Part shown: positions 3,939 through 61,596 of the stretch, in pieces
How the letters are laid out: every line of letters starts with the position of its first letter
Numbering within the stretch: position 1 is the first letter of the stretch
Source of the DNA: a virus
Length of the DNA stretch: 64,000 nt
Direction: 5' to 3' (one strand)
IMG/VR virus record: IMGVR_UViG_3300027692_000001
Made by a program: the position numbers and the translations under genes
Notes under the pieces: model-generated
Seen by the model: only the letters and a program-made list of their open reading frames with translations
The model's database searches: none
What the model was told of the DNA's origin: nothing

Positions 3939-4129
3939 CCAAGCCAACCACCCTCTCGTTCACCGAAGCCGAGCAGGCCCGTATCTTCGAGGCCGCCCGT
4001 ATCCTGAACACCACCCAGGTCGAACTAATCAAGTGGGGCGCGCTCCAAGCCGCGGACGAGGTGATCGGCGTGAACAACGAGCTCGCCCAGGGTCGGTTGG
4101 GGGACGGGGTTAGGATCGCGGGGCAGTGA
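3935..4129 (+). CDS. ribbon-helix-helix-like small protein
   Basis: GTGA overlap at 3935 (alternative ATGs at 3920 and 3926). TTLSFTEAEQARIFEAARIL has a beta-strand plus helix pattern like the CopG/Arc fold. Confidence 0.5.
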   Translation: MTKPTTLSFTEAEQARIFEAARILNTTQVELIKWGALQAADEVIGVNNELAQGRLGDGVRIAGQ

Positions 4130-4386
4130 GCGCGCTGACCGATCGCGTACGTGCCCAGCAAGCGGGCGTACAGAGGCTGACCCCTGAGCAGATCAGAGAG
4201 GCCCTTGAGCGGCCGTTCAAGGAGCATGGCGACCACCCCTGGCACCAAATAGGGCGGTGCGTCTACTGCGGCCCCTGCGGCGTCAGGCTGTACCAAGGGA
4301 CGATGCCGCCCGACCATGAGGTCTACAAGCGGCCATACCAACCAACGGCCGCCGATGAGATGCTCAAGCGCTGGGGGAAGCTGTGA
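4126..4386 (+). CDS. hypothetical protein (CxxC pair)
   Basis: GTGA overlap. 86-aa ORF with CVYCGPC. Confidence 0.6.
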   Translation: MSALTDRVRAQQAGVQRLTPEQIREALERPFKEHGDHPWHQIGRCVYCGPCGVRLYQGTMPPDHEVYKRPYQPTAADEMLKRWGKL

Positions 4387-4487
4387 GGGCACTCAAGGAT
4401 CTGTGGGCCGACTCGCCCCCCCATGTGTTTATCATGGCCTTTGGTGTCGCCCTCGGGCTGGCCTTCGTGGTCAAGTGGTGCCTGTGA
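4383..4487 (+). CDS. possible 34-aa single-pass membrane peptide
   Basis: Not in the ORF track. GTGA overlaps at both ends (4383 and 4484). Sequence VRALKDLWADSPPHVFIMAFGVALGLAFVVKWCL. Confidence 0.35.
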   Translation: MRALKDLWADSPPHVFIMAFGVALGLAFVVKWCL

Positions 4488-5230
4488 GCAAGCGCACCGA
4501 CGACCTCGAGCGCCGCGTCAAGCGAGCCTGCGAGACGGCTGAACACCTCTTGGCACCCTGGGCCGGCAAAGGCACCCCTAGTGTCCTGTTCGAGTTCATG
4601 CGCCGCGGTGAGCAGCCCTTCGGAGCGGATGGGTATGCGTCGCGCTCAGCCCTGGACCCGAGCGGAGTGGGTGGCGGGAGCTCGGACATGACGAGCGTGG
4701 AGTCGGCCGCGAACAGTCGTATGCAGGATGTTTGCAAGCGCTGCGAGGGTTCGGGCAAGTTCCAAGGTCGCGCCAAGTGCAAGGCATGTGGAGGGAGTGG
4801 CAAGCGGTTCGCCGACCCGATAGGTGACGGGGTGACCGATGGGCTGCGCGAGCTGGGAGTAGCACTACGAGCCTTAGAAGTGGTGGGCGCAAAGATTGAC
4901 CTCGTGATGGGTTCAGCGGCCCGGTTCGCCGGCCGGCAGAGCACCCTTACAAACTGCGAAGTGCCGTCGTGCTCGGCCGCCATCTCAGGTGTGGGCAATG
5001 ACCGGAAGCGCTCGGGGTGCTGCCCTCGTTGCTTTTTACATCTGTCCACCTGGCGCTTGGTCCACCCGACCACCGGAGATCCCGGTGCCGACCGCCAAGC
5101 GTTCTACGCGTTCATGGCCGACTTCTTCCAACAGAAGGAGCTCAAGGCTCAGGCGCGCGCCGAGAAGGAGTCCCGCGAGATTGAGAGACTGCGCCGCAGA
5201 GGCGAGTTGCCGACAGCGAGGGCGCGATGA
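4484..5230 (+). CDS. hypothetical protein with DnaJ-type CxxCxGxG zinc-finger repeat
   Basis: GTG 4484 is coupled to the micro-ORF stop. It carries CKRCEGSGKFQGRAKCKACGGSGKR plus a second Cys cluster (CCPRC). The track ORF from 4316 would overlap two upstream genes. Confidence 0.6.
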   Translation: MSKRTDDLERRVKRACETAEHLLAPWAGKGTPSVLFEFMRRGEQPFGADGYASRSALDPSGVGGGSSDMTSVESAANSRMQDVCKRCEGSGKFQGRAKCKACGGSGKRFADPIGDGVTDGLRELGVALRALEVVGAKIDLVMGSAARFAGRQSTLTNCEVPSCSAAISGVGNDRKRSGCCPRCFLHLSTWRLVHPTTGDPGADRQAFYAFMADFFQQKELKAQARAEKESREIERLRRRGELPTARAR

Positions 5231-5535
5231 AAGAGCAGTATGACAACTTGATGGCATACTTCGATGGGGTACGGCCTGACCTCGCTGCCGACCCCATCGA
5301 GCGGGAAAGGGTGAGTCAAGCCCTGCGCCGCAATTTGAAGGCGTTTGACGATTTGGTGGAGGCGATCGACCAGGCCAAAGCCGATCCTCGTTGCTCGCGC
5401 ACTCTTGGTAGTCGCCCCGAGTGGATGAGCCCTGACCAGTACAGCCCTTGTCGGTGTCGGCGCCGTAAGGACCACGATGGGCCGCACGCTTGTGAGCATG
5501 AGTACTCAGAGCTAGTGGAGCTTTCTACCGCCTAG
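5227..5535 (+). CDS. hypothetical protein
   Basis: ATGA overlap. This 102-aa ORF is the last gene of the rightward array. Confidence 0.6.
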   Translation: MKEQYDNLMAYFDGVRPDLAADPIERERVSQALRRNLKAFDDLVEAIDQAKADPRCSRTLGSRPEWMSPDQYSPCRCRRRKDHDGPHACEHEYSELVELSTA

Positions 5536-5950
5536 CCCTCGTAACCGGGGTGAGGGGCCACCTGCTCAACCGTTCAACGTTTCGGGGAAGGTGGCCCGGC
5601 GGGAGTCCCCTTGCTTTTGGTGGAGACTTAGAGGCAGAGTCCTCCCCTACTTCTAGGAGAGAGCTTGCTTTTGGAGCCAGACTCCTCAGCTTCGCCCAAC
5701 ACGGTCGGGATATTGGCAGGTGGGCACCATGACTGGGCTCCCACCCGGACGCGCCTTGACTGGGAGGCCCCCTTACCATCGGGGTCAGGACCTGTGCGGC
5801 CTACTCGCCAGCGACTTTGAAGGGCTTCGCTGTTCCCTTGCGAACCCGTCTCGTGGGCTAGTGACGACTGTCTGCTACAGTGGCTCTCGGTTGTCGTGGT
5901 GACTACCATTGTGGCAGGTGCGGGCTGGTCACACGCGGACCAGCCCCCTG
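5536..5950 (-). ncRNA. copy A of an unclassified ~400-nt structured element (orientation inferred)
   Basis: 415-bp gap with no ORF conserved in frame. The reverse complement aligns with 59106-59532 at roughly 70 percent identity by eye, with blocks up to 17 nt (ccggacgcgccttgact). Hairpins are kept by compensatory changes. It begins with a perfect 9-bp stem (5922-5946) 4 nt after the ruvB-like stop. Confidence 0.5.
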
Positions 5951-7006
5951 CTACTCCCAAGACCTCACAAGGTCATAGCTAGGGCTGAGAGCCATACGGC
6001 CACGCGCCGTCCGGGTAATCAAGCCAGCGGCCACCATCGGCCCTTCCCTGCTCTCTAGAGCGCTTTGGTCGAGTCCCACGGCCTGACTGAGCGCTGAGAT
6101 GCCAATCGCCCGTCCTGCGAACACGGTGACCAGTGCGAGGATGATCCTTCGGTCTACCGCGTCCCACCCCGAGGGGTCGATGTCGAACGATTCCAAGGCC
6201 GCCGCGCAGTCTCCCGGTAGCACTGTCGATCGACCTTGGCAGGCCACCCAATCAAGGCACCGCTCCGACAGGTGGAGCGCGAGGCGCGGCGTGCCCTTGC
6301 ACCTCTCGGCGATGGTCGTTGGCTCAGTTGAGGCGAACACCACGCCCTTGCGTGTCCACGCGTTGGCTACAACCTGGGCCAGCTCGGCCACGCTGTAGCT
6401 CTCCATTGACAACTTGACGCCAAAGCGGGCCCTGAAGGGCTCTGGGAGCTGTCCAGGGGCCGTTGTAGCGGCCACACAGACGAAAAAGGGGAGATGTGCT
6501 ACGTGAGCCCTGGAATCGGCTCCTGAGCCCAACAGGAGGCTTACAGAGCGGTCCTCAAGGGCACCGTACAAAGTCTCCAAGACTGGCTTGGACGCGGCGT
6601 GTACTTCATCGATCAGCAGCACGTCGCCCACGGTGAGACGCAAGAGCACACCAATGAGGTCCTGGGGCCGGCGCAAGAGGGGGCCTTGGAGAACGTGCAG
6701 CTCCCCGCCGAACTCCTTCGCGATGACGTTGGCTATGGAGGTCTTGCCAAACCCGGGAGGCCCGTCGACCAATACGTGGGCCATGGGCACCCCACGCAAT
6801 ATTGACCCACGCATAACGGTTTTTAGTTGGGCCAGTAAGCTAGTTTGCCCGACCATTTCGCCCATAGTTTGAGGGCGGTTGAGGTTGGGCGGAGGTGGCA
6901 ATGGGAGGGCGGTAATATTATTCGGCGCCCCCGGAGCCTTCCTAGGTTCGGGCCTTTGGGCTCCGGTGTGCGCGTGGTGGGTAGCGCGTAGAGCCGCGCC
7001 GATCAT
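5951..7006 (-). CDS. ruvB: RuvB-like AAA+ Holliday junction branch-migration ATPase homolog
   Basis: Full-length collinear similarity to RuvB: Walker A GPPGFGKT, Walker B LLIDEVH, sensor ATT, RARFG, GTPRLA, and C-terminal winged helix ..GLITRTARGRMA. The start is set at ATG 7006 (ATGA overlap). The track start at 7267 would run through two upstream genes. Confidence 0.8.
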   Translation of the reverse strand: MIGAALRATHHAHTGAQRPEPRKAPGAPNNITALPLPPPPNLNRPQTMGEMVGQTSLLAQLKTVMRGSILRGVPMAHVLVDGPPGFGKTSIANVIAKEFGGELHVLQGPLLRRPQDLIGVLLRLTVGDVLLIDEVHAASKPVLETLYGALEDRSVSLLLGSGADSRAHVAHLPFFVCVAATTAPGQLPEPFRARFGVKLSMESYSVAELAQVVANAWTRKGVVFASTEPTTIAERCKGTPRLALHLSERCLDWVACQGRSTVLPGDCAAALESFDIDPSGWDAVDRRIILALVTVFAGRAIGISALSQAVGLDQSALESREGPMVAAGLITRTARGRMALSPSYDLVRSWE

Positions 7007-7080
7007 CGCGAGACCTTGCGCGGACGAAAGACGATGGCCCCGACGAGGACCGCGAACAGGATTAGGGCGCCGCCGGTCAT
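7003..7080 (-). CDS. possible 25-aa membrane micro-protein
   Basis: Not in the track. ATGA overlaps at both ends. Sequence MTGGALILFAVLVGAIVFRPRKVSR. Confidence 0.35.
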   Translation of the reverse strand: MTGGALILFAVLVGAIVFRPRKVSR

Positions 7081-7301
7081 AGCCCATAGCCCCAAGCGCT
7101 AAGCGGTTTGACCGGGCAGTCAGGCAGGGCCATGAACTCCTGCCAGTGGGTCTCGCAGTAGTGACCCGAGACGGTCTGCCGGCGAGTGCAGTCGGCGAAC
7201 TCACAACGGAGCTGCCAGTCAGAAGTCCAGCGTAGGGGCTTAGGCTCGGCGGGTATCGCGCCGCCATCGTCGGCCCAGGTGTGCTCTTGTAGTTCAGTCA
7301 T
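7077..7301 (-). CDS. hypothetical Cys/His-rich protein
   Basis: 74-aa ORF preceded by the leader CCCCTACGAAACGAGGACC. Has a CEFADC...HYCETH metal-binding-like pattern. Confidence 0.6.
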   Translation of the reverse strand: MTELQEHTWADDGGAIPAEPKPLRWTSDWQLRCEFADCTRRQTVSGHYCETHWQEFMALPDCPVKPLSAWGYGL

Positions 7302-7330
7302 CGGTCCTCGTTTCGTAGGGGTTTGGGGTA

Positions 7331-7377
7331 CAGCGCGCCTAGGCGCCGATCTGCGAGCGCACGCCTAGGCCGTACAG
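7331..7377 (-). promoter_or_regulatory. CCTAGG-centred palindromes / stem-loop between two leftward genes
   Basis: Perfect 12-bp palindrome GCGCCTAGGCGC plus a second CGCCTAGGCC. Together they can form a 9-bp stem. There is no U tract. Confidence 0.35.
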
Positions 7378-7707
7378 CTAGCCGAAGTTCGTAAAGTCAC
7401 CCTCCCCGCGGTAGCTGTGAGCGCGTGGCGCTGGTGCGACGGTTCCCTCTTCGGTCACTACTACGTCGGGCTCGCCGATGTAACTCTGAATGATGACCGC
7501 GTGTTCGCTAGTCCACCCGTCGACGATCTCGCTGATGTTCTCGCTGCTCTCGCTCAGCTCGAGTTCTGCCTCATCCTTTGGGTGGATGGGCTTGTCAAGT
7601 ACGGCGGCCGCTTCGTAACAAAAGCGCGCCGAGGTGGGCGCGTTGGCTAGGTCCATGTTGAAACATACGGGTACGGTTTCTAGGTCAAAGGTGCTGGTCT
7701 CGGCCAT
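7378..7707 (-). CDS. hypothetical acidic protein
   Basis: ATG 7707 is preceded by CCCCTACGAACGAAAGG (the shared leader/SD). 109 aa. The track start at 7791 lies upstream of that leader. Confidence 0.6.
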   Translation of the reverse strand: MAETSTFDLETVPVCFNMDLANAPTSARFCYEAAAVLDKPIHPKDEAELELSESSENISEIVDGWTSEHAVIIQSYIGEPDVVVTEEGTVAPAPRAHSYRGEGDFTNFG

Positions 7708-7736
7708 GGTGTGCCTTTCGTTCGTAGGGGTAAGGC

Positions 7737-7898
7737 TTAGTAACGGTCGGCGGCCGGCAACTTGGCCAGCTCGGCCCACCAGGGTAGGCAAACGTGGCCG
7801 AATAGGTGGTTCTGAAGTGCGCTAACAACCCGGCCGCAATGCTCGCACGTAAAGGCTTGGATTGCTAGGACTTGTCCGTGGTAGGTCTCGTTTGCCAT
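7737..7898 (-). CDS. 53-aa Ros/MucR-type C2H2 zinc-finger protein (candidate switch regulator)
   Basis: Not in the track (<60 aa). Sequence MANETYHGQVLAIQAFTCEHCGRVVSALQNHLFGHVCLPWWAELAKLPAADRY. The C-x2-C-x9-H-x3-H spacing equals the prokaryotic Ros/MucR finger. Its ATG lies 6 nt after a consensus -10, so it is leaderless. Confidence 0.5.
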   Translation of the reverse strand: MANETYHGQVLAIQAFTCEHCGRVVSALQNHLFGHVCLPWWAELAKLPAADRY

Positions 7899-7904
7899 AT
7901 CTCT

Positions 7905-7933
7905 ATTGTACGCTCGCTAGACGGAGATGTCAA
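7905..7933 (-). promoter_or_regulatory. consensus sigma-A/sigma-70 promoter (leaderless transcript)
   Basis: On the minus strand: TTGACA, 17 nt, TACAAT, then 6 nt to ATG 7898. Confidence 0.6.
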
Positions 7934-8409
7934 TAGATTGTGTGTACAGATAGGAAAGAGACATACGACGCCAGATACCGGGTACTTGATCAGCGACGAT
8001 GCGCACGCTAACCTCTCGGCCCTAGTAGTGACTGGTGCGCCTAGAAGGTCTTCGCGATCTCGGCCGCCATGGTTCTTTGCCTTGTATGCGCCTTACAGCA
8101 GCCACAGCGCTTGAAGGGGTTCACAGACGTGCAGCGCACCGGCTAGGCGAAGCGAAACAAAGCAAGACACCAGAACGAAGACGGCAAGCACCGAGAACAG
8201 GCAAAACAGACGGCGCGCTGGGCCGACGGGCCTGTGACGTGCAGGAACGCATCACAACGTGCTCGTCTCTCCGGTAGTTAGCACTCTCGGCCCATAAACA
8301 GGCCGTGACCAGCGCAAACGCCGATCGGTCGAGCCAGATTCCCTCCTCGGCGAGCAAAAAGGGCCCGTGCTAAGGCACCGACATCCCGTGACGTGTGCGG
8401 GGGCCTTTC

Positions 8410-8453
8410 GGTAATACCTTGACACGGTAATACCAACCCTGTACGGTAATACC
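8410..8453 (+). promoter_or_regulatory. rightward early promoter with three GGTAaTACC operators
   Basis: TTGACA (8419-8424), 17 nt, TACGGT (8442-8447), then 7 nt to ATG 8455. The 9-bp palindrome GGTAATACC occurs at 8410, 8426 and 8445, flanking the -35, in the spacer, and over the -10. Confidence 0.6.
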
Positions 8454-8454
8454 C

Positions 8455-8673
8455 ATGCCTGACCCCTGCGCCATCTGGGACTGCCCCGCCCCCGGCGAGT
8501 ACACCATCCAGTTCCGGGACGGCTACTGCCCGACGGTCTGCTCCGAGCATGAGGATGTCATCTGCGAAGTGGTCGGCCGGCACATCCAGCACGCCGCTCA
8601 GGACGACCCGATCCGAGACCACTGGCGACTGGAGGACGTTCGCCACATCCCGATCACTCGGGTCCAGGTATGA
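8455..8673 (+). CDS. hypothetical Cys-rich protein (first gene of rightward operon, leaderless)
   Basis: 72-aa ORF starting 7 nt after the -10. Five Cys residues in the first 40 aa. Confidence 0.6.
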   Translation: MPDPCAIWDCPAPGEYTIQFRDGYCPTVCSEHEDVICEVVGRHIQHAAQDDPIRDHWRLEDVRHIPITRVQV

Positions 8674-9023
8674 GGCAACCCGTCGTGACCCTGCGGATCG
8701 ACCCCGAGGTTTGGGACAAGGTGAAGGCGGCAGCGGCTGAGGTCGACAAGTCCACCAGTGAGTGGGTTCGTGACGCCTGTGTCTCCAGCCTGAGCCGGCG
8801 CACCCTGAACGCCTCCCCTCCGGTCCAGTCGGCTCCTGTGCGACCACAGCGGCCTCAGACGAGCCCTGGGAGGGCCAAGCCCTCCGTCCGACAGTCCGCC
8901 CCCGTCAAGGACGCAGAGGCCCGTCTAGCTGAGGTCCGCCGTGAGCCGTGCCGGCATCCGTCCAACCGTCGGATCGGCGACGGGTGTGGAATGTGCGGAG
9001 AGATCGTGAAGGGGGCCAAGTGA
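8670..9023 (+). CDS. ribbon-helix-helix DNA-binding protein
   Basis: ATGA overlap. VTLRIDPEVWDKVKAAAAEVDKSTSEWVRDACVSSL is a CopG/Arc-like RHH N-terminus. The C-terminal end has CGMC. Confidence 0.6.
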   Translation: MRQPVVTLRIDPEVWDKVKAAAAEVDKSTSEWVRDACVSSLSRRTLNASPPVQSAPVRPQRPQTSPGRAKPSVRQSAPVKDAEARLAEVRREPCRHPSNRRIGDGCGMCGEIVKGAK

Positions 9024-9202
9024 TGGCCTCCCCTCGCAGGGCTAAGGCCCGCAGAGATTTGTCCATGCCCGACCTGTCCCCCGCTGACCGGGAGGCCGTG
9101 GACCGCAGCATCGCTAGGTCCAAACCGACTGTGGCAGTCCCATCTCGAGTGGCTGGGGACAGGATGCCCGAAGTCACCCCTCGGTTCAAGGGGGCCAAGT
9201 GA
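9020..9202 (+). CDS. hypothetical protein
   Basis: GTGA overlap embedded in the repeated junction AAGGGGGCCAAGTGATGGCC. 60 aa. Confidence 0.5.
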   Translation: MMASPRRAKARRDLSMPDLSPADREAVDRSIARSKPTVAVPSRVAGDRMPEVTPRFKGAK

Positions 9203-9465
9203 TGGCCAAGCTCCGCATCGTTGGTGCCGGTACGGTCGGCTACGGGTACAAGGTCGAGATCGATGGCGTGGAGCGCCCCGATGTCTTGAGGTGCGTCGTC
9301 TCTTGGGATGCCCAGGACTTCTGTAGGGCCGACGTGAGCCTGGCCATAGACGACCTTGACGTTGTGGCGGAACTGCAAGAGGCCGAGGCTGCGGAGATGG
9401 CCAAGCGTGCCGACCTCGTGTTCCGACCGTTTGGCCGGCCTAAGCCCGAGGCCAACGATGCCTGA
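9199..9465 (+). CDS. hypothetical protein
   Basis: Second copy of the same junction cassette. 88-aa ORF. Confidence 0.6.
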   Translation: MMAKLRIVGAGTVGYGYKVEIDGVERPDVLRCVVSWDAQDFCRADVSLAIDDLDVVAELQEAEAAEMAKRADLVFRPFGRPKPEANDA

Positions 9466-9607
9466 AATCCTGAAGGCCCCCGTCTGGCTCGCTAAGCAGG
9501 GGTGGAGTGACGAGGAGTTCACGGAGATGAACGCGGCGTGGGTGAAGCACCAGGCGGAGCACCCCGACGAAGTTTTTGTTTGGCCCCCTATGCCCGAGGC
9601 GCAGTGA
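9458..9607 (+). CDS. hypothetical protein
   Basis: ATG 9458 overlaps the previous stop by 8 nt. 49 aa. The track start at 9356 would overlap heavily. Confidence 0.45.
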   Translation: MPEILKAPVWLAKQGWSDEEFTEMNAAWVKHQAEHPDEVFVWPPMPEAQ

Positions 9608-9903
9608 TGGCCGAGGCCTTCGTCAATCACAACCCTGACCCCCTCCTGCATCTCTGGGGCCGCACTGGTCCGCGAGGGCGGGAGATCGGTGGCTCAGTAG
9701 CTCTCTGCGGTGTCGTCGTGCGAGAGCGTCGGGGCGGGTTCGACCGAGAGCACCCCAAAGCCTGCCCGAACTGCCTCGAGGCCCTGGACGCTGGGTACAG
9801 CTATGAGGAGTACTCAGCCATCCGGGGACAGCGCACCAAGCAGCGCATGGAGTCGGGCGACTTCCGAGGGTTCGTTTGCCGGGAGGAGGACATCCGTGGT
9901 TAG
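9604..9903 (+). CDS. hypothetical protein
   Basis: GTGA overlap (CAGTGATGGCC). 99 aa with a CPNC motif. Confidence 0.55.
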   Translation: MMAEAFVNHNPDPLLHLWGRTGPRGREIGGSVALCGVVVRERRGGFDREHPKACPNCLEALDAGYSYEEYSAIRGQRTKQRMESGDFRGFVCREEDIRG

Positions 9904-10138
9904 CCGCATCTCCCACCTCACCTGTACCTCCTGCGGCACGGACCAACGCGTCAAGATCGAACAAACCGAGGGCGGCGAGCTCTGCTCCCCCTGTAACGCG
10001 TGCGGGGGCCGGGGCTTCGCTGCTTGGCCGAGGCTCGAGATGCCCACCGCGCCGGTCTTCGACTTCGCCGAGGTCCCCACCGAACGCCTCAACGAGTTCC
10101 TGCGGGCGGTCTTTGGGGAGTACAAGGACGACGAATGA
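9896..10138 (+). CDS. zinc-ribbon protein
   Basis: GTG lies 6 nt after GGGAGGAGGA. Has CTSC...CSPCNACGG. Confidence 0.55.
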   Translation: MVSRISHLTCTSCGTDQRVKIEQTEGGELCSPCNACGGRGFAAWPRLEMPTAPVFDFAEVPTERLNEFLRAVFGEYKDDE

Positions 10139-10422
10139 GCCAGGGCATCTATACTCCGTGCCTCCACGGCTTTGAGCCCAAGGTCTGCCCGACGTGCCAA
10201 GAGCCGATCCTCCGCTACCAGTCAGTAGCCGACGCCCGACGTTTGGCCAAGGCGCTTGAAGTAGTAGAGGCGGCGCGAGGCTTCAAGCAGGCCTGCGAGG
10301 ATTTCTGGCGCGGTATTGAACCGGGTGTCCGTGCCCACGCGGACGACCTCGCTGATATCGTCACCCGACGCCGAGATGCGATCTTCGCCGCTCTGGCTGC
10401 CTTCGATGAGGCCACCAAGTGA
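10135..10422 (+). CDS. hypothetical protein
   Basis: ATGA overlap. 95 aa with CPTC near the N-terminus. Confidence 0.6.
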   Translation: MSQGIYTPCLHGFEPKVCPTCQEPILRYQSVADARRLAKALEVVEAARGFKQACEDFWRGIEPGVRAHADDLADIVTRRRDAIFAALAAFDEATK

Positions 10423-10526
10423 CTGTCACCGTTGCCTTGATCCGCCTCGGCTGGGCGCTCCTGCTCGGCTACGGCGTCCTTTGGATGGTCCGCGACGAGT
10501 GGCGGATGGATAGGCGGGACCGGTGA
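10419..10526 (+). CDS. possible 35-aa membrane peptide
   Basis: Not in the track. GTGA overlaps at both ends. Sequence VTVTVALIRLGWALLLGYGVLWMVRDEW... Confidence 0.4.
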   Translation: MTVTVALIRLGWALLLGYGVLWMVRDEWRMDRRDR

Positions 10527-11627: not shown

Positions 11628-11702
11628 AGCGGTGTGGAGTAGTGGCAACTCGTTGGGCTCATAACCCTGAGTCTCAGGTTCGATTCCTGGCCCCCGCCAC
11701 CA
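11628..11702 (+). tRNA. tRNA-Met(CAU), initiator-like, CCA encoded
   Basis: Hand-folded cloverleaf: D arm GAGU/ACUC, anticodon loop CUCAUAA (CAT at 11660-11662), GGG/CCC anticodon-stem triplet, T loop UUCGAUU, A1xC72 mismatch. It closely parallels E. coli tRNA-fMet. Imperfections are U6xC67 and one extra C after the T stem. Confidence 0.8.
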
Positions 11703-17769: not shown

Positions 17770-19530
17770 GTGCAAGCCGAGGACACTGGCCGTGTACTGT
17801 TGGTCCAGCGGTTGCCCGACAAGCACGACGAGGACGAAGCGTATGCCAGGTGGGAGTTCCCAGGAGGCCGGCTTGACGACTCCGACGCTTCCGTCTGGGC
17901 TGGCGCTGTCCGAGAGTTTGAGGAAGAAACTGGATGCCCTCTCCCTGCCAGCGTGGAGCCTTCCGGTGGATGGACCAGTGACGATGGAGTCTACGAGGGC
18001 TTTGTTCTTCAAGTGGCCCGAGAGTCAATGCTTGTACCGCACCCTCAACCCGACGAAATCTCCCGCGTCCAGTGGTGGGACCCCGCCGACCTAGACGACC
18101 CCCGCATCCGCGAGAAGGTTACTGAGCAGCTGGGCGACATCAAGCCCCTCCTGAAGTCGTTCCACCGCCACACCGACGCGATCCTGGCCCACTACACCCC
18201 CCTGATCCAAGACTCGATGGCCCAGATCATCGAAGGCGACACCGTCCGTCATGCGATCCGCGCCGCGTACACCTCGGTCCACAAGGCCACAGCGGGCACG
18301 CACAGCAAGCGATCGGGGATGGTGTCTCTTGATGTGCCCGCTGGCCTTATCCCCGTCATGGCGGGGGGAGTGCCAGATCAGCACATAACGGTCGTGTTCC
18401 TCGGGAGCGACGTGGGGGACGCCACGTTCGCCGCCGTGTGCGCCCTAGCGGAGACGGTCGCTGCGTCGGTCTCTGGTCCGGTGAGCGGCACTATCGGTGG
18501 TCTCGGGACCTTCCCTCCCTCGGAGAGCAGTGATTGGCTGGTGCCTGTCTGGGCTAAGCCTGAGATCGTTGGTATCGCCCAGTTGCGGGCCCCGTTTGAG
18601 CCGTGGAACGCCAGCCAGCACAAGGACTTCCACCCGCACATGACATTGGCGTACCTTGACCCTGACGAACCGCTCCCCGCTCCCGTGCCGCCTACTCCCG
18701 TGACGTTCACTCATCTTTCGGTTCACAGGGGCGACGAGGTAGTTCGGTTCCCGTTCGGCGGCGCTGTTAAGGCGATGACCCCGACCGCGCCGGGCTCGCA
18801 GAACACCCCGAAGTACCAGCGCCAGTTGCAAGCCCTGATCAGTTCTCCCCAAACCGTCATAGGCGCAGCAGGGGTAGGTGCCGGCGCTGCCCTGGCGGGA
18901 CCGGCCTTAGCAACCGCTGGCGGGGTGGGTAGCGCCGTCCTCGCCCTCTTGAACGCACAGTTAAAGCTAGGGGCGCTCACGGCCGTTCTGACGGCTCTGT
19001 ACGGCGATGCACTCCTTCAAGGCGCTTACGAGGCCTCACAGGCCTCTGGGAAGCCCCTACCGCCATTGGGGCTTCCCGAGGGCTACTGGGACCAGTGGGT
19101 GCCGGGGCACAACGACCTCGCCGCCCAGCTCCCCGGTGGCACGCTCCAAGAACTGCTCGCGGCCCAAGGCGTCACGATCCGAGGGATCTCTGAGACGCAG
19201 TTGAACCGTATCGCCGACGCCATTGCCGAGGCAGTGCGCGATGGAGTCCCAATGAAAACCACGGTCGTAAAGATCGAAGCCATCATTGGAGACGCCGCTC
19301 GAGCCCAACTGATTGCGTCCACCGAGTACGCGAGGGCTGTGACGGCGGCTAGGCGGGCGTTCTACCGTGCCAACCACATAGGCATGGTGGCCTGGATCGC
19401 CCACCCGGACGCGTGTGAACTGTGCAAAGAAAACGAGGCCGTGTCGCCTAGGGCACTTAGGGACTCGTGGCCGAACGGAGAGCCACCGGTCCACCCTGCT
19501 TGCCGGTGTGTTCTGGCGCCTGCTCCGTAG
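17770..19530 (+). CDS. Nudix hydrolase / 2H phosphoesterase (LigT-like) / MuF-like head morphogenesis fusion protein
   Basis: Nudix box ...GGRLDDSDASVWAGAVREFEEETG. Two HxTx motifs (HITV, HMTL) about 95 aa apart. The C-terminus ...AWIAHPDACELC...PPVHPACRCVLAP is typical of SPP1 gp7/MuF minor capsid proteins. Confidence 0.8.
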   Translation: MQAEDTGRVLLVQRLPDKHDEDEAYARWEFPGGRLDDSDASVWAGAVREFEEETGCPLPASVEPSGGWTSDDGVYEGFVLQVARESMLVPHPQPDEISRVQWWDPADLDDPRIREKVTEQLGDIKPLLKSFHRHTDAILAHYTPLIQDSMAQIIEGDTVRHAIRAAYTSVHKATAGTHSKRSGMVSLDVPAGLIPVMAGGVPDQHITVVFLGSDVGDATFAAVCALAETVAASVSGPVSGTIGGLGTFPPSESSDWLVPVWAKPEIVGIAQLRAPFEPWNASQHKDFHPHMTLAYLDPDEPLPAPVPPTPVTFTHLSVHRGDEVVRFPFGGAVKAMTPTAPGSQNTPKYQRQLQALISSPQTVIGAAGVGAGAALAGPALATAGGVGSAVLALLNAQLKLGALTAVLTALYGDALLQGAYEASQASGKPLPPLGLPEGYWDQWVPGHNDLAAQLPGGTLQELLAAQGVTIRGISETQLNRIADAIAEAVRDGVPMKTTVVKIEAIIGDAARAQLIASTEYARAVTAARRAFYRANHIGMVAWIAHPDACELCKENEAVSPRALRDSWPNGEPPVHPACRCVLAPAP

Positions 19531-56839: not shown

Positions 56840-57988
56840 GTGGCACGCAAAGTCGAAAGGCTCACCGAAGAGCAGGAGCGCTACATGCCCGTGTTCCGGG
56901 ACGAGTGGATACGGCGCGGCTTGGCAACCGGGCCATGTGATCGTGCGGTAATCGAAGCTGCCGTGAAGAAGATGTACCGAGGTGCAGGCAAGAAGGAGCC
57001 TGGGATAATCATCTGGGTCGAGTCGCCGCTAGGCGGATGTTTGGCCGCTGGGTTGCTTAGCAACCCATCCGTGGGGACCTCCGTGGGGGACTCCGTGGGG
57101 GCCTCCGTGCGGGCCTCCGTGTGGACCTCCGGGGGGGACTCCGTGGGGGACTCCGTGTGGGACTCCGTGTGGACCTCCGTGCGGGCCTCCGTGGGGGACT
57201 CCGTGCGGGCCTCCGTGTGGACCTCCGTGCGGGACTCCGTGTGGGACTCCGTGTGGACCTCCGTGCGGGACTCCGTGGGGGACTCCGTGTGGACCTCCGG
57301 GGGGGACTCCGTGGGGGACCAAATCTACCGTGCTTGCTATGGCCAGCATGACGCGAACTGGGTTGCCTGGGCGCGGTTCCTTCAGGATGTCGGCGCGAAC
57401 GTTGGGAGCTCGGACCATGAACTCTGGTTGCGGGCTATGGATGAGATGACGGACACGAGCTGGTGGTGGCCGTTCGAGAAAGCCGTCATTCTCAGCGAAC
57501 GCCCCCTCACTCTTACCCGCGACGCCCAGGGCCGGCTCCACTCGACGACGGGCCAAGCAATCGGCTACAGCGACGGGTGGGGAGTCTGGGCCGTCCATGG
57601 CGTGCGCGTCCCGCAATGGGTCGTCGAGCAACCCGAACTCATTACGCCTGAGAAAATCCTCGCCGAACAGAACCAGGAAATCCGACGGGTAATGGTCGAA
57701 CAAATGCCGGGTGGCTGGCAACACTTCGTCGATATGGCGAAGCTCAAACTCATCGACGAGTGCCCCGACCCAGGGAACCCTCCCTATATGGTCAGGCTCT
57801 ACTCTCTTCCGGCCGCTCTAGGCAGCCACAAGCTCATTATCGTCAACAACGCCACCATCGAGCGTGACGGCTCGCGGCGTTCTTACGGCATCACCGTCAG
57901 CGCAAACTGCAAGACCGCCATGGAGGGCGCCAGTTCCACCTTCGGCCTCTCTGTCGATCAGTACAAAGAGTTAGCCCGGGCAACCTAG
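56840..57988 (+). CDS. protein with SVxx tetrapeptide tandem-repeat array and conserved C-terminal domain
   Basis: GTG after GAAAGGAACC. About 21 consecutive 4-aa units ([16 protein letters not shown]) followed by a ~220-aa globular domain. Confidence 0.65.
57066..57319 (+). repeat. 12-bp coding tandem repeat (tccgtgggggac-type)
   Basis: About 21 in-frame 12-nt units with point variation. They generate spurious repeat ORFs in other frames and on the other strand. Confidence 0.85.
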
Positions 57989-58543: not shown

Positions 58544-58716
58544 CCCTCTCCATCTCCCCCACCCGCTCAGGGCTCACCACCACGATTGTCTGCCTGAAGT
58601 GCGAGCACTTCGCCGACGAGCCCCAGCCAGCGTGGATCGACACGAATGGCGACGTCTACTTCCAGGGCGAGTCATGGGAGGACTTGGTGTTCTTCGGGGA
58701 GCGCCACCGAGAATGA
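58540..58716 (+). CDS. possible 58-aa protein
   Basis: Not in the track. GTGA at the start and ATGA at the end. Good GC3. Confidence 0.45.
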   Translation: MTLSISPTRSGLTTTIVCLKCEHFADEPQPAWIDTNGDVYFQGESWEDLVFFGERHRE

Positions 58717-59105
58717 CCAGCGCCGATGCCACCCGGAAGAAGGAACCGACCAGGGCCAGAGACAGAGCCTTCGCGCGTGGCGAAGCACTGGCGCGGCTCG
58801 CAGCCCGGTACCCCGACGAGTTTGAGGCTCTTTACGCTGAGGAGCGGCAGCGCCTTGGGCTGCCTCCGGTTGACCGCGACGCCCGGAACTTTGTCGACGC
58901 GCAACTCCTACGTCTCGTCCGCGCTGACCCCTCTCCCGGCCTAGAGGCGGCGGCGCTCGCTACGGGGCTCTCCACGGAGGGCGCTCGTCAGGGGCTGATG
59001 CGACTGGTCGCGGCCGGGAGCCTCCGTATCGTGCCCACTGCCAAGAGCGGAAGGAGTGGGAGGAAGCGTACGACCTACGCCGTAACGCAGAGAGCCGGTC
59101 CTTGA
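58713..59105 (+). CDS. winged-helix (MarR-like) DNA-binding protein
   Basis: ATGA-coupled start (the track start at 58599 overlaps the upstream ORF). C-terminal ..LSTEGARQGLMRLVAAGSLRIV.. is a wHTH-like segment. Confidence 0.55.
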   Translation: MTSADATRKKEPTRARDRAFARGEALARLAARYPDEFEALYAEERQRLGLPPVDRDARNFVDAQLLRLVRADPSPGLEAAALATGLSTEGARQGLMRLVAAGSLRIVPTAKSGRSGRKRTTYAVTQRAGP

Positions 59106-59532
59106 CAGGGCCGGCTCTATCTGGTTACGCTTGGTTCGCTGACAACCAAGAGCCACCCTAGCACAGACGGGTCGTTTAGTCCACGAGACGGATTCACACG
59201 GAGCGCCGGGCCCGTCAGCCGGCGGCGAGTTGGGAGCACAGACCCTGATCCCGATGGCAAGGGAAGCCCTCAAGTCAAGGCGCGTCCGGTGCGAGGCCCA
59301 GTCAGCAGCTTCCCTACCAACATCCCGACCGTGTGGTGACGCTGACGACTTGGCTCCAAAAGCGAAAACCTCTCCTAACACTAGGGGAGGGTTCTGCCTC
59401 TAACTCTCACCAAAAGCGATCAGGGAGAACCGAAGCAACCACCTCTTAGGTGTAGCATCGCCAACCACCAAAAAGAAGCGGACCTGAGGCTTCCCCACCC
59501 CAGGCCCGCCCTAGACAGAGGAGGCATCCCTC
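59106..59532 (+). ncRNA. copy B of the unclassified ~400-nt structured element
   Basis: 427-bp ORF-poor gap. Collinear with the reverse complement of 5536-5950. An 8-bp stem (59091-59118) encloses the upstream stop codon. Contains TTGACA, 18 nt, TACGCT at 59102-59131. Confidence 0.5.
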
Positions 59533-59880
59533 TTGACAGCGACTTTACCATTACCACTCGCATTGCCCCCCAAACGCGAGCGCCCTGGTATCCCCCCCGA
59601 CTTCGTTCCTTCCAGAGACAGCCTCTTGTGGGCCGCTGGGCGCGGGTACGACCGCCTCGACCTGGACTACGAGAACGAGCAGTTCGTCCTCTACCACCTC
59701 GGTCACGCGACCAAGTGGAAAAGCTGGGACCTCGCGTGGCGGAGCTGGATCGCGCGCTCAGCCCACGACAAGGCTTCGGCCCTGAACGTGGGGCGTCCTT
59801 CGTCGGGCCTTGTCCCCTCCCGGCCTGCTCAGGTCGATGGCCGCGGCTTCCTCAGGAGAGATGATGTCCCCGAAGCCTGA
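59533..59880 (+). CDS. hypothetical Trp-rich protein
   Basis: TTG lies 7 nt after GAGGAGG. 115 aa. Confidence 0.55.
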   Translation: MTATLPLPLALPPKRERPGIPPDFVPSRDSLLWAAGRGYDRLDLDYENEQFVLYHLGHATKWKSWDLAWRSWIARSAHDKASALNVGRPSSGLVPSRPAQVDGRGFLRRDDVPEA

Positions 59881-60921: not shown

Positions 60922-61596
60922 ATGACTGTCACCGAGACAAAGGCCCCACCCTTCGGGGTGGAGCACGTCAAGGTCGTGTGCCGCGACATCCTTCTCCCGC
61001 CAGATACCGACCCAGAGGTTTTGCTCTGGGGCTTCCGCCTGAACGGCTTGGACATGGTTTCAAGCCATGAGTACCGCTGGCCGTTCCCTGGCCGCTGGGC
61101 CGAGGCTACAGGGCCGTTTACCGAAGGTGGGGACGGGTGCCCTACCGCCGAGGGCGATGGACTATGCGTGGCGAAGACAATTGAGGGCTCGCAGTCTGGC
61201 AACGGTCGGTTCGGAAAATCTCTCGGGCTGCTTATTGCTTACCTGCCTGGCGACCTGTTGGCTGAGTCGAGTCACAAGCTGAGGGTCAAGAAGGCATGGG
61301 TAGCGGATGTGTTCGATCCAGTACGGGCATTGCTCCTGTCCAGGGCCAACCTGTCCAGGGCCAACCTGTCCGGGGCCGACCTGTACGGGGCCGACCTGTA
61401 CGGGGCCGACCTGTACAGGGCCAACCTGTCCGGGGCCAACCTGTCCGGGGCCAACCTGTCCAGGGCCAACCTGTCCGGGGCCGACCTGTCCGGGGCCAAC
61501 CTGTCCGGGGCCAACCTGTCCGGGGCCACTTACAGCCAGGGCACTCTCTGGCCCGCGAACTTCGATTTCTCAAGCAAAGGGGCGGTGAAGATATGA
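60922..61596 (+). CDS. pentapeptide-repeat protein
   Basis: The C-terminal half is about 13 consecutive A(N/D)L(S/Y)(G/R) pentapeptides. The N-terminal ~135 aa is unique. Confidence 0.8.
61336..61530 (+). repeat. 15-bp coding tandem repeat (gccaacctgtccggg-type)
   Basis: Near-identical 15-nt units encoding the pentapeptide repeats. They give long spurious ORFs in all other frames. Confidence 0.85.

Follow-up and report, generated by a model that had tools for sequence, protein, structure and literature searches.

The nutL/nutR sites of phage lambda and the putL/putR sites of HK022 are 30-75 nt long and lie just downstream of early promoters, ahead of the terminators that they override. Intrinsic terminators, in turn, include U-tract-poor 'I-shaped' hairpins, which are common in Actinobacteria. 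Two further systems come from mycobacteriophages: MPME1 and MPME2 are two related mobile elements of ~440 bp (PMC3029335), and YrlA-like (Y-RNA-like, Rfam RF02553) RNAs are carried as accessory non-coding RNA cargo (Chen et al. 2014, PMC4201824). Here we describe two diverged copies, A and B, of a ~340-base non-coding cassette within the genome of one temperate soil phage, and compare them with these systems. The window, that is, the whole stretch of DNA analyzed (64,000 nt, IMG/VR record IMGVR_UViG_3300027692_000001), represents almost all of a circular ~65.1-kb (~65,130 bp) temperate siphovirus-like phage that is present at 100% identity in several soil metagenomes, among them the samples of ENA ERZ27313991 and JGI 3300001593. 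Contigs identical to the window hold identical cassette copies, so there is no variation among them.

On the circular map, A and B lie in inverted orientation and bracket an ~11.3-kb plus-strand early block, which extends from 59.5 kb via the map origin to 5.5 kb. Copy A lies on the minus strand behind a gene for a RuvB-like ATPase, and B on the plus strand behind ORF168, each copy being oriented as its gene; the proteins that flank A are unrelated to those that flank B. Because ORF102 is convergent with the RuvB-like gene, A sits between two gene ends. The surrounding features are as follows:

5951..7267, minus strand: RuvB-like AAA+ ATPase gene, upstream of A (Pfam; public gene call of 351 aa, 5951-7006).
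5227..5535, plus strand: ORF102, convergent with the RuvB-like gene.
5555..5597, plus strand: backbone hairpin behind ORF102, outside the repeat, common to the relatives L145, L146 and L147.
58599..59105, plus strand: ORF168, upstream of B, with an HTH-like C-terminus (public call of 130 aa, 58713-59105).
59533..59880, plus strand: ORF115, downstream of B.
59476..59511, minus strand: 15-bp terminator-like hairpin followed by CTTCTTTTTGG, in the unique flank between core B and ORF115 (-28.3 kcal/mol, z -3.9).

The original prediction had aligned the reverse complement of 5536-5950 collinearly with 59106-59532. The collinear relationship is borne out by three methods: blastn aligns 5613-5895, reverse-complemented, with 59,1xx-59,4xx at 76.1% identity over 289 nt (E 9e-44, 51 mismatches, 12 gap openings), the MAFFT alignment has a mean column identity of 76%, and an nhmmer profile finds exactly two copies in the window, at 5604-5899 (-) and 59137-59425 (+). 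The exact sequence blocks quoted in that prediction are present. Its coordinates were overextended: the homologous unit is shorter, spanning about 5604-5951 in A and 59087-59425 in B, and the segments 5536-5603 and 59426-59532 are unique flank outside the repeat. In both copies a 15-bp GC stem-loop, located at the upstream gene's stop codon, precedes a core of ~296 nt:

5604..5899, minus strand: core of cassette A, ~296 nt, non-coding (nhmmer, blastn against B, flat GC frame plot).
59137..59425, plus strand: core of cassette B, ~289 nt, non-coding (nhmmer, blastn, GC frame plot).

Although the two cores have diverged by 24% and the phage genome is compact, they have kept nearly the same length (296 and 289 nt). 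Conservation seemed significantly block-wise on the MAFFT alignment, and this effect was gone with an optimized pairwise alignment, on which substitutions are not significantly clustered (variance p 0.37; the longest identical run is 15, against an expected 16); differential constraint across the core is therefore not shown. Such an about even spread of differences would suit a neutral relic, in which a non-functional spacer or a piece of a decayed gene, duplicated long ago or acquired twice by recombination, drifts apart and only the terminator hairpin is functional. We regard this as distinctly unlikely: tailed-phage genomes are densely packed and normally lose useless DNA, and near-equal lengths with only short indels after 24% divergence also argue against it.

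Neither copy encodes protein. The GC frame plot is flat over both regions, all frames align equally weakly in a six-frame comparison of A and B, with stops in every frame of B, and the chance ORFs in both copies have no PHROG match (E<=1). The indels, of 1, 2 and 4 nt, are not multiples of three. A protein-coding gene is rejected on these grounds, and the reported absence of a conserved reading frame holds. With no protein similarity in any frame, the cassette is not a recognizable pseudogene, which counts further against decay of a former gene. The template/variable (TR/VR) pair of a diversity-generating retroelement is likewise ruled out by the substitutions: 32 are transitions and 23 transversions, a symmetric spectrum in which A-sites are not enriched.

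The strongest inverted repeat of the cassette is the stem-loop at its 5' end:

5914..5951, minus strand: 5' stem-loop of cassette A, 15 bp, GC-rich, from the TAG stop of the RuvB-like gene (dG -26.2 kcal/mol, z -3.3).
59087..59123, plus strand: 5' stem-loop of cassette B, 15 bp (dG -25.5 sense, -21.7 antisense, z -5.5).

In B, the stem-loop overlaps ORF168 in its final 6 codons and its TGA stop. The copies have 14 stem-loop pairs in common, with three changed on both sides, one changed on one side and none broken, an outcome with P~2e-4 under random substitution. The stem-loop is under pairing selection. B has a single U.G pair that can form on the plus strand only, and through it the sense strand gains 3.8 kcal/mol in stability over the antisense. 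This stem-loop does not appear among the three stems listed in the original prediction. Both cassettes show the stable GC-rich stem-loop directly behind a gene by which intrinsic terminators are recognized; neither has a U-tract on its 3' side, the downstream sequence being GCCACAAUGG in A and UUACGCUUGG in B, and a terminator scan did not report these hairpins. Most probably the stem-loop works as RNA, either as a factor-independent terminator or as a hairpin that would protect the 3' end of the upstream message. Its GGCUGGUCCG resembles the 5' end of vertebrate Y RNAs, which we take to be a coincidence.

The original prediction had gone further, describing the twin elements as an unclassified large structured RNA whose differences preserve hairpins. 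The elements are indeed twin, ORF-free and unclassified; the structure of the core stays within shuffled and simulated nulls. We compared the core, as two sequences only, with column-shuffled nulls and with nulls from simulated neutral substitution at fixed or random sites. Relative to column shuffles, RNAalifold gives z -0.65 (sense) and -1.69 (antisense), or -1.3 and -1.4 with a better alignment. It reports 7 'compensatory' pairs on the sense strand versus 6.1+/-2.1 in column-shuffled alignments, and 12 versus 8.5+/-2.5 on the antisense strand; on the second, better alignment an excess over column shuffles was again absent. Shuffled alignments thus give as many compensatory pairs, and the preservation of hairpins does not exceed chance. 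Simulated substitutions at the same positions preserve structure as well as the real ones do (p 0.11-0.66), and folding of single copies yields z-scores of +0.17 and -0.84. For the two copies, consensus energy, base-pair-probability overlap and compensatory counts all fall within the nulls.

The three individual stems that had been proposed fare no better. The first (5867-5881 / 59155-59172) and the third (5810-5831 / 59204-59224) do form a hairpin in each copy, with 3' arms that are out of alignment register, and the second (5719-5745 / 59288-59318) is in B a bulge-interrupted 3+3 bp helix whose 3' arm aligns to a different segment of A. Co-located hairpins of >=5 bp number 9 on the sense strand versus 4.4+/-1.9 expected (p~0.03, uncorrected, as one of four tests, with several of the counted hairpins overlapping); the antisense strand has 5, with 3.9 expected (p 0.35). 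A further hint of the sense strand comes from two short hairpins, UAGYCC...GGRUUC and YCCC...GGGR, in which the only stem differences are paired, each being a change from C-G to U-A. We conclude that a large structured RNA is not demonstrated for the core and cannot be shown from two copies, and that an RNA role is plausible, given the sense-strand excess of hairpins, G.U pairs confined to the sense strand, and the YrlA-like RNA that a sister phage has in the corresponding slot (see below). At 63% GC, two copies with 76% identity will always contain several hairpins seemingly kept by different sequences, and explicit null models alone told the one truly selected hairpin from the others.

The core contains discrete features, and one promoter-like site lies at its upstream edge in B:

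5633..5662, minus strand: conserved 8-9 bp hairpin CUCUCCUA/UAGGGGAG in A (-12.1 kcal/mol).
59368..59397, plus strand: conserved hairpin of the CUCUCCUA/UAGGGGAG type in B (-14.6 kcal/mol, z -3.4).
5610..5674, minus strand: internal direct repeat CCAAAAGCAAG, two units, in A, 54 nt from start to start, flanking the conserved hairpin.
59356..59419, plus strand: internal direct repeat CCAAAAGCGA, two units, in B, with the same 54-nt spacing.
59102..59131, plus strand: promoter-like TTGACA-N18-TACGCT, in B only, within or just behind the B stem-loop.

In A as in B, the sense strand alone allows a U.G pair in the conserved hairpin, whose loop differs between the copies (GAAG vs ACAC). Both repeat units of B differ from those of A at one and the same position (A to G); retention of the two-unit repeat in both copies, at identical spacing, is a further point against neutral decay. 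Transcription from the promoter-like site would begin with the first bases of core B; the site is absent from a stricter consensus scan, and A has no recognizable promoter and no counterpart of the site. According to the terminator scan, neither copy has a hairpin with a U-tract on its sense strand. A search for trans targets in the rest of the genome returned only chance-level matches of 15 nt or less.

These features could also be read at the level of DNA, as a boundary or regulatory module in which a terminator hairpin is combined with protein-binding sites or promoters that insulate transcription units; the two CCAAAAGC(A/G)A motifs, with a spacing of 54 bp or about 5 helical turns, would then be putative sites for a phage protein. 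This would account for the position of the copies on either side of the early block, for stem-loops exactly at stop codons, and for an internal repeat that is equally spaced in both copies and whose two units change together, and it could draw on the promoter-like site in B. It could also draw on the antisense strand, where the conserved hairpin is followed by GCTTTTGG, and on the strong hairpin with a T-run beside B on the minus strand. However, a terminator/promoter module of about 300 bp would be a long one, A has not kept the promoter-like site, and the hairpin preceding GCTTTTGG has a C.A mismatch on its would-be terminator strand. Moreover, apart from the one two-unit repeat, neither palindromic operators nor multi-copy iterons were found, and no DNA-binding protein is tied to both copies. 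We therefore consider a purely DNA-level module unlikely.

Comparison with related phages shows that the repeat is accessory cargo and that each copy is a discrete accessory cassette. It is missing in every relative recovered, from slot A in L136-L138, L140 and L145-L147 and from slot B in L149. In L147, whose RuvB gene is 86% identical at the nucleotide level, slot A is filled by unrelated sequence with an 86-aa ORF, and in L136, L137, L138 and L140 the RuvB gene directly adjoins the next gene. In L149, ORF168 is 83% identical in nucleotides up to 59076, from where the sequence runs straight into a WhiB gene. In the sister phages L145 and L146 the backbone, with ORF102 and the hairpin behind it, is retained as far as window position 5606, beyond which a YrlA-like RNA replaces the cassette. 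This RNA, which lies between the ORF102 hairpin and the RuvB-like gene, has tRNA-like T and D arms; in L145 it scores 44.7 bits against RF02553 (E 6e-9), short of the gathering score of 69, and its gene is on the strand opposite to the RuvB-like gene. The 5' boundary of the cassette is sharp, at most about 15 nt from the end of homology to relatives. In the relatives, the slot always holds other sequence or has a different neighbor; none of them offers an empty site that is otherwise identical.

The presence of one cassette at two unrelated loci of the same genome, its absence from the orthologous sites of every recovered relative, and the sharp 5' boundary raise the question of whether it is a selfish, non-autonomous mobile DNA cassette (MITE/MPME-like, gene-less) that was copied to two gene-end sites. 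The core would then have no RNA function, in keeping with its lack of a significant structure signal, and the stem-loop would serve mobilization or be tolerated because it terminates transcription. The size and 76% identity recall MPME1/MPME2 (PMC3029335). Nevertheless, there are no terminal inverted repeats joining the ends of either cassette, the 5' hairpin being the sole strong inverted repeat, no recognizable target-site duplication, and no transposase or mobilizing gene within or beside either copy. The copies are 24% diverged and only two in number, indicating no recent mobile activity, and mosaic recombination among phages would also yield presence and absence without transposition. On balance, we judge such mobility rather unlikely.

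Searches for further members of the family gave the same count of two. No known RNA family was recognized, in keeping with the label 'unclassified' in the original prediction: with Rfam 15, which covers RNase P, tmRNA, SRP and 6S RNA, group I/II introns, GOLLD, ROOL, HEARO, riboswitches and ribozymes, neither locus matches a family at the gathering score, and at E<=10 there is only sub-20-bit noise. YrlA and other bacterial Y-RNA-like RNAs are marked by a tRNA-like module (T-arm GGUUCGA, D-arm) that a Ro60-binding stem closes, and they are encoded beside a Ro60 (TROVE) gene. There is no RF02553 match in A or B at E<=10, and ARAGORN finds nothing there. The only Rfam match in the whole window is a tRNA-Met (11629-11698), which ARAGORN likewise reports as its only hit (at 11629), and no Ro60/TROVE gene occurs among the about 35 window ORFs scanned against Pfam or PHROGs. 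Nor did the homologs that nhmmer or BLASTN had been expected to supply emerge from the collections searched. Blastn against GenBank phages and PLSDB plasmids gave no homolog of the element, and scans with exact or degenerate blocks found no other copy in about 3 million viral contigs of IMG/VR, which again speaks against a mobile cassette. In GTDB genomes the block scan gave 50 matches, all confined to the seed, and in JGI metagenomes 5 chance matches. The nhmmer profile found no homolog in 80 DUF6745-anchored viral loci, in contigs anchored on the RuvB-like gene, ORF102 or ORF168, or in 119 motif-anchored loci. With no Rfam match and no homolog elsewhere, family status is without independent support. 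The lack of homologs and the missing structure signal in the core are both also compatible with a neutral relic.

We tentatively favor, at somewhat less than even confidence, an accessory, moron-like cassette in which a terminator-type hairpin is followed by a sense-strand non-coding RNA. A and B would be diverged paralogs of one such ~340 bp cassette that landed at the 3' ends of two unrelated genes. The ~296-nt core most likely specifies the RNA on its sense strand; its transcription, the strand and any RNA function are inferred. The RNA may be a read-through or processing product of the upstream transcript; for B, the TTGACA-N18-TACGCT site is an alternative start. The Y-RNA-like gene that occupies this slot in the sister phage leads us to favor, by analogy, a trans-acting accessory RNA, perhaps in host RNA metabolism or defense, over a cis regulator. 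It is conceivable, if doubtful, that the elements represent an undescribed class of ~300-nt phage non-coding RNA, serving as a cargo alternative to Y-RNA or tRNA-like RNA, for example in host RNA repair or decay or in anti-defense. If the core is an RNA, this orphan of ~300 nt would join a very small set from actinobacterial phages, and it would suggest that non-coding RNA cargo, here in alternation with a Y-RNA-like gene in one slot, is swapped among soil phages much as protein-coding morons are. At present, the cassette is a well-delimited candidate, and it carries a caution about hairpins read from two copies.

How, then, does the cassette relate to known systems? Like lambda nut and HK022 put, it occurs as two diverged non-coding copies in opposite orientation, each in the local sense of transcription. 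In contrast to those sites, each element, at ~300 nt, comes after a terminator-like hairpin where a gene ends, and no gene follows A on its strand. The size of ~300 nt, this position and the convergent gene that A faces do not fit an antitermination RNA of the nut/put type. With intrinsic terminators the cassettes share a 15-bp GC-rich hairpin at the stop codon, whose pairing is kept by compensatory changes; they differ in that their stem-loops lack a U-tract and in that the conserved core of 296 nt has no counterpart in a simple terminator. GOLLD, ROOL and HEARO/omega RNA, all of which are in Rfam, are similarly long, ORF-free conserved regions of phage DNA, sometimes near tRNA genes, whereas the twin elements are smaller than GOLLD or ROOL, match no covariance model, have no demonstrable conserved architecture and have no adjacent gene of the IscB/TnpB type.

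The MPMEs too are short, are of two related types at scattered sites in actinophage genomes, and are present or absent between close relatives. Inverted repeats mark their left and right ends, and a small ORF has been described in them; the twin elements have neither and show no sequence similarity to any GenBank phage. With the YrlA-like cargo of mycobacteriophages, finally, the elements have in common that a non-coding cassette occupies a variable intergenic slot in a temperate, actinophage-like genome; they are about three times longer and carry no YrlA or tRNA signal at E<=10.

The reverse complement of the intergenic gap at 5.5-5.95 kb is homologous to the gap at 59.1-59.5 kb. The two copies are collinear, with a mean column identity of 76% in the MAFFT alignment, and blastn matches them at 76.1% over 289 nt (51 mismatches, 12 gap openings, E 9e-44), in agreement with the original prediction of twin elements, whose quoted exact blocks are present in both. 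Searching the window with a profile of the pair yields these two copies and no other, at 5604-5899 (-) and 59137-59425 (+). The homology stands, and the ends first assigned to it do not: the homologous unit spans approximately 5604-5951 (copy A) and 59087-59425 (copy B), and the remainder of both gaps is unique. Each copy consists of a stem-loop at the upstream gene's stop codon followed by a core of ~296 nt.

Both regions are non-coding, as had been claimed: the three codon-position GC curves merge over 5500-5950 and 59110-59530 and separate clearly in the flanking genes, indels between A and B are 1, 2 and 4 nt long, the six frames are interrupted by stops and all align to the same poor degree, and chance ORFs in the two copies have no PHROG family match. 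The elements also remain unclassified, with no Rfam match in either copy at the gathering score or at E<=10. A DGR-type pair was ruled out by the symmetric A/B mismatch spectrum.

The window belongs to a tailed phage, encoding a portal protein, a MuF-like protein, a tape-measure-sized ORF of 1138 aa, a tyrosine integrase, a RecE/RecT-like exonuclease and annealing-protein pair and a DUF6745 protein; it has no close relative among GenBank phages. A lookup with ORF102 and ORF168, which flank A and B, retrieved a 65,271-bp ENA contig (ERZ27313991 k141_1344615; L141/L269) that matches the window exactly. The coordinate offsets between them give a circular (or terminally redundant) map of ~65,130 bp with a 141-bp assembly overlap, of which the window is a rotated copy and thus a near-complete genome. 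There is no third copy in the 1.1 kb that the window lacks (nhmmer on L141 gave copy A only). Contigs that are shorter but 100% identical to the window come from at least four further assemblies of soil metagenomes (L142-L144, L270); in these data the phage is thus widespread and clonal.

Two genes converge on copy A:

5227-5535 (+), ORF102, coupled translationally to the preceding gene
5951-7267 (-), RuvB-like AAA+ gene

Copy B is located inside the plus-strand early gene array, flanked by ORF168 and ORF115. Each copy has the orientation of the gene immediately upstream, and the proteins flanking A are unrelated to those flanking B. Just upstream of ORF115, at 59466-59515 (-), there is also a strong 15-bp hairpin (dG -28.3, z -3.9) followed by CTTCTTTTTGG; it looks like a canonical terminator on a strand with no predicted gene nearby, and could either terminate an antisense RNA or keep antisense transcription out of cassette B.

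The clearest structure is the stem-loop with which each copy begins:

5914-5951, stem-loop A, 15 bp, GC-rich, -26.2 kcal/mol, z -3.3 against dinucleotide shuffles
59087-59123, stem-loop B, 15 bp, GC-rich, -25.5 kcal/mol, z -5.5 against dinucleotide shuffles

Stem-loop A begins at the TAG of the RuvB-like gene, while the 5' arm of stem-loop B is formed by the last six codons of ORF168, with the TGA in the loop. The predicted helices have 14 pairs in common, of which 10 are identical, three carry two-sided changes (G-C to A-U twice, U-A to C-G once), one carries a one-sided change (U-A to U.G) and none is broken; only 2 of 10,000 random placements of the same seven stem substitutions kept all pairs. 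Owing to the U.G pair, the sense strand of stem-loop B folds 3.8 kcal/mol better than its complement. Neither stem-loop is followed by a U-tract; hairpin terminators of this kind are frequent in Actinobacteria. The pattern of substitutions is that of a selected hairpin, predicted to be of the intrinsic-terminator or 3'-end-protecting type. It was absent from the stems originally listed, and is the only structure that our analysis supports.

The core, in contrast to the stem-loop, has no demonstrable conserved fold. Single copies do not fold better than shuffles (z +0.17 and -0.84). For the sense strand of the pair RNAalifold returns -52.3 kcal/mol with 7 'compensatory' pairs, and for the antisense strand -67.1 kcal/mol with 12; the corresponding values are -48.9±5.2 with 6.1±2.1 pairs and -57.9±5.5 with 8.5±2.5 pairs when alignment columns are shuffled within conservation classes (z -0.65 sense, -1.69 antisense; -1.3 and -1.4 for an optimised alignment including the stem-loop). 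In neutral simulations, where one copy was evolved into the other with indels and substitution spectrum kept, pair-probability overlap and consensus energy were no better in the real sequence when the observed sites were used (p 0.11-0.66), and randomised sites gave a weak trend (p 0.04-0.19). The three stems said to be preserved through sequence differences do not hold up in the alignment: stems 1 and 3 are present in each copy, but the 3' arms do not fall at aligned positions, and stem 2 is in B a 3+3 bp helix with a bulge, whose 3' arm is aligned to a different segment of A. At 63% GC, each copy can form 36-38 hairpins with stems of 4 bp or longer; co-located pairs of them number 20, where 19.4 are expected. 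For hairpins of at least 5 bp the sense strand has 9 co-located against 4.4±1.9 expected (p 0.03, in one of four tests and with several overlapping), and the antisense strand shows no excess (p 0.35). Two short conserved hairpins, UAGYCC-ACGAGAC-GGRUUC and YCCC-GAUGGYAA-GGGR, have stem differences only at paired positions; they are suggestive, in a number that the null predicts. Block-like conservation, significant on the MAFFT alignment, disappeared with a better one (74.6% identity, variance p 0.37), and therefore no differential constraint is demonstrated along the core. A large structured RNA is possible, but the evidence first cited does not support it, as the core fold lies within the nulls. 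That the core is instead a neutral relic beside a hairpin that alone is functional seems improbable.

Some features of the core are retained at the level of short motifs. In A as in B, two units of a direct repeat, set exactly 54 nt apart, lie on either side of a conserved hairpin of 8-9 bp (CUCUCCUA/UAGGGGAG); this hairpin has a U.G pair when read on the sense strand, and its loop is GAAG in one copy and ACAC in the other. The repeat units, CCAAAAGCAAG twice in A and CCAAAAGCGA twice in B, are identical within a copy and differ at the same position between copies; such a concerted difference could reflect a common binding partner. The motif pair resembles a putative pair of binding sites, and on the circular map the inverted copies bracket an 11.3-kb early block, both of which would fit a DNA-level boundary or binding module, a reading we consider unlikely. 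Copy B also has a promoter-like TTGACA-N18-TACGCT with a predicted transcription start at the first core bases, for which A has no counterpart. No complementarity of 16 nt or more was found between the element and the rest of the genome.

Comparison with relatives, whose contigs were obtained through homologues of the flanking proteins, shows where the element is missing. At slot A, in L136/L137 the RuvB gene (73% nt identical) directly abuts a homologue of the window gene at 4316-5230, and RuvB is likewise followed without a gap in L138 and L140. The L147 RuvB gene shows 86% nt identity, and its similarity ends at window position 5967; next come an unrelated stretch with an 86-aa ORF and then the hairpin found behind ORF102 in the backbone. 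L145/L146 share the backbone (ORF102 remnant plus hairpin) up to window position 5606, and the ~170 nt between this point and RuvB match Rfam YrlA (RF02553, E 6e-9; the 44.7 bits fall short of the gathering score, 69):

L145 1684-1796 (+), YrlA-like (Y-RNA-like, tRNA-mimic) RNA, RF02553
L146 732-844 (+), YrlA-like (Y-RNA-like, tRNA-mimic) RNA, RF02553

These RNAs have clear tRNA-like T- and D-arms, draw no tRNA call from ARAGORN, and occupy exactly the place of cassette A, with the ORF102 hairpin on one side and the RuvB-like gene on the other. At slot B, the ORF168 homologue of L149 shows 83% nt identity as far as window position 59076; past that point its final codons differ, and a WhiB gene follows directly. 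The L145-L147 and L149 comparisons place the end of the relatives' homology within ~15 nt of the start of A/B homology, and at 5606 on A's other side. By these alignments A and B are discrete, accessory cassettes that provide the upstream gene's last few codons and stop, and slot A is a site of cargo turnover, occupied in a sister phage by a small RNA gene. Presence and absence among relatives, together with an MPME-like size and two-type pattern (PMC3029335), could indicate a selfish mobile DNA cassette; this is doubtful, however, given that the cassettes lack terminal inverted repeats and a mobilising gene and that there are only two copies, both old.

Further homologues were not found by blastn against 50,697 GenBank phage records and PLSDB plasmids, by exact and degenerate scans of IMG/VR with the longest shared blocks, or by profile searches of 80 viral loci anchored on the neighbouring DUF6745 gene, of the relatives' contigs and of 119 loci anchored on the internal repeat; the block scans of GTDB genomes and JGI metagenomes gave only chance matches limited to the seed. 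These scans rely on exact words or synteny, and diverged homologues could escape them. The 17-mer AGTCAAGGCGCGTCCGG occurs twice in direct orientation, 406 nt apart, in one contig of an unrelated planctomycete, a Phycisphaeraceae MAG (L043, 5541-5557 and 5947-5963); blastn shows no extended similarity to the element, and this is probably an unrelated local repeat.

Several other features of the genome were observed. A 586-aa protein adjoining the portal gene (17770-19530, +) combines NUDIX, 2'-5' RNA ligase/2H-phosphoesterase-like and C-terminal phage Mu F-like domains; it is unusual for a head-morphogenesis protein to be fused to such enzymatic domains. In the relative L136, a gene for an RLIG1-type RNA ligase is found close to the RuvB-like gene, and RNA-metabolism cargo appears recurrent in this phage group. 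The ~750-nt gap without a called gene at 7708-8454, between minus-strand genes (the last at 7378-7707) and the plus-strand array from 8455, looks like a divergent control region. Genes at 4000-10500, including the well-supported RuvB-like gene, score poorly under a codon model trained on long structural genes, which suggests different codon usage around cassette A and possibly recently acquired modules. Blastn self-matches reveal tandem-like internal repeats, 85-92% identical, in the DUF6745 gene (57068-57319) and a pentapeptide-repeat gene (61335-61528). A 44-bp segment of ORF102 (5366-5409) is inverted in L145 (1430-1473, 98% identical), where ORF102 is only 62 aa long: a small inversion or rearrangement within the gene.

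The cassette's exact extent, its accessory nature and the selected stop-codon stem-loop are solid. The best-supported account, which we hold tentatively, is an accessory, moron-like non-coding cassette: the terminator-type stem-loop would close the upstream gene, and the ~296-nt segment after it would most likely yield a sense-strand RNA, produced by 3' extension or by processing or, in B, alternatively from its own promoter. We favour an RNA because the element is non-coding with its length retained in a compact genome, because the G.U pairs and the hairpin excess are sense-only, because both loci are oriented with the upstream gene, and because an RNA gene fills the same slot in a sister phage; it stays a candidate because of the lack of a significant fold, of a promoter in A and of homologues. 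Rather than a demonstrably new RNA class, the cassette is an orphan example of the non-coding cargo carried in phage genomes.
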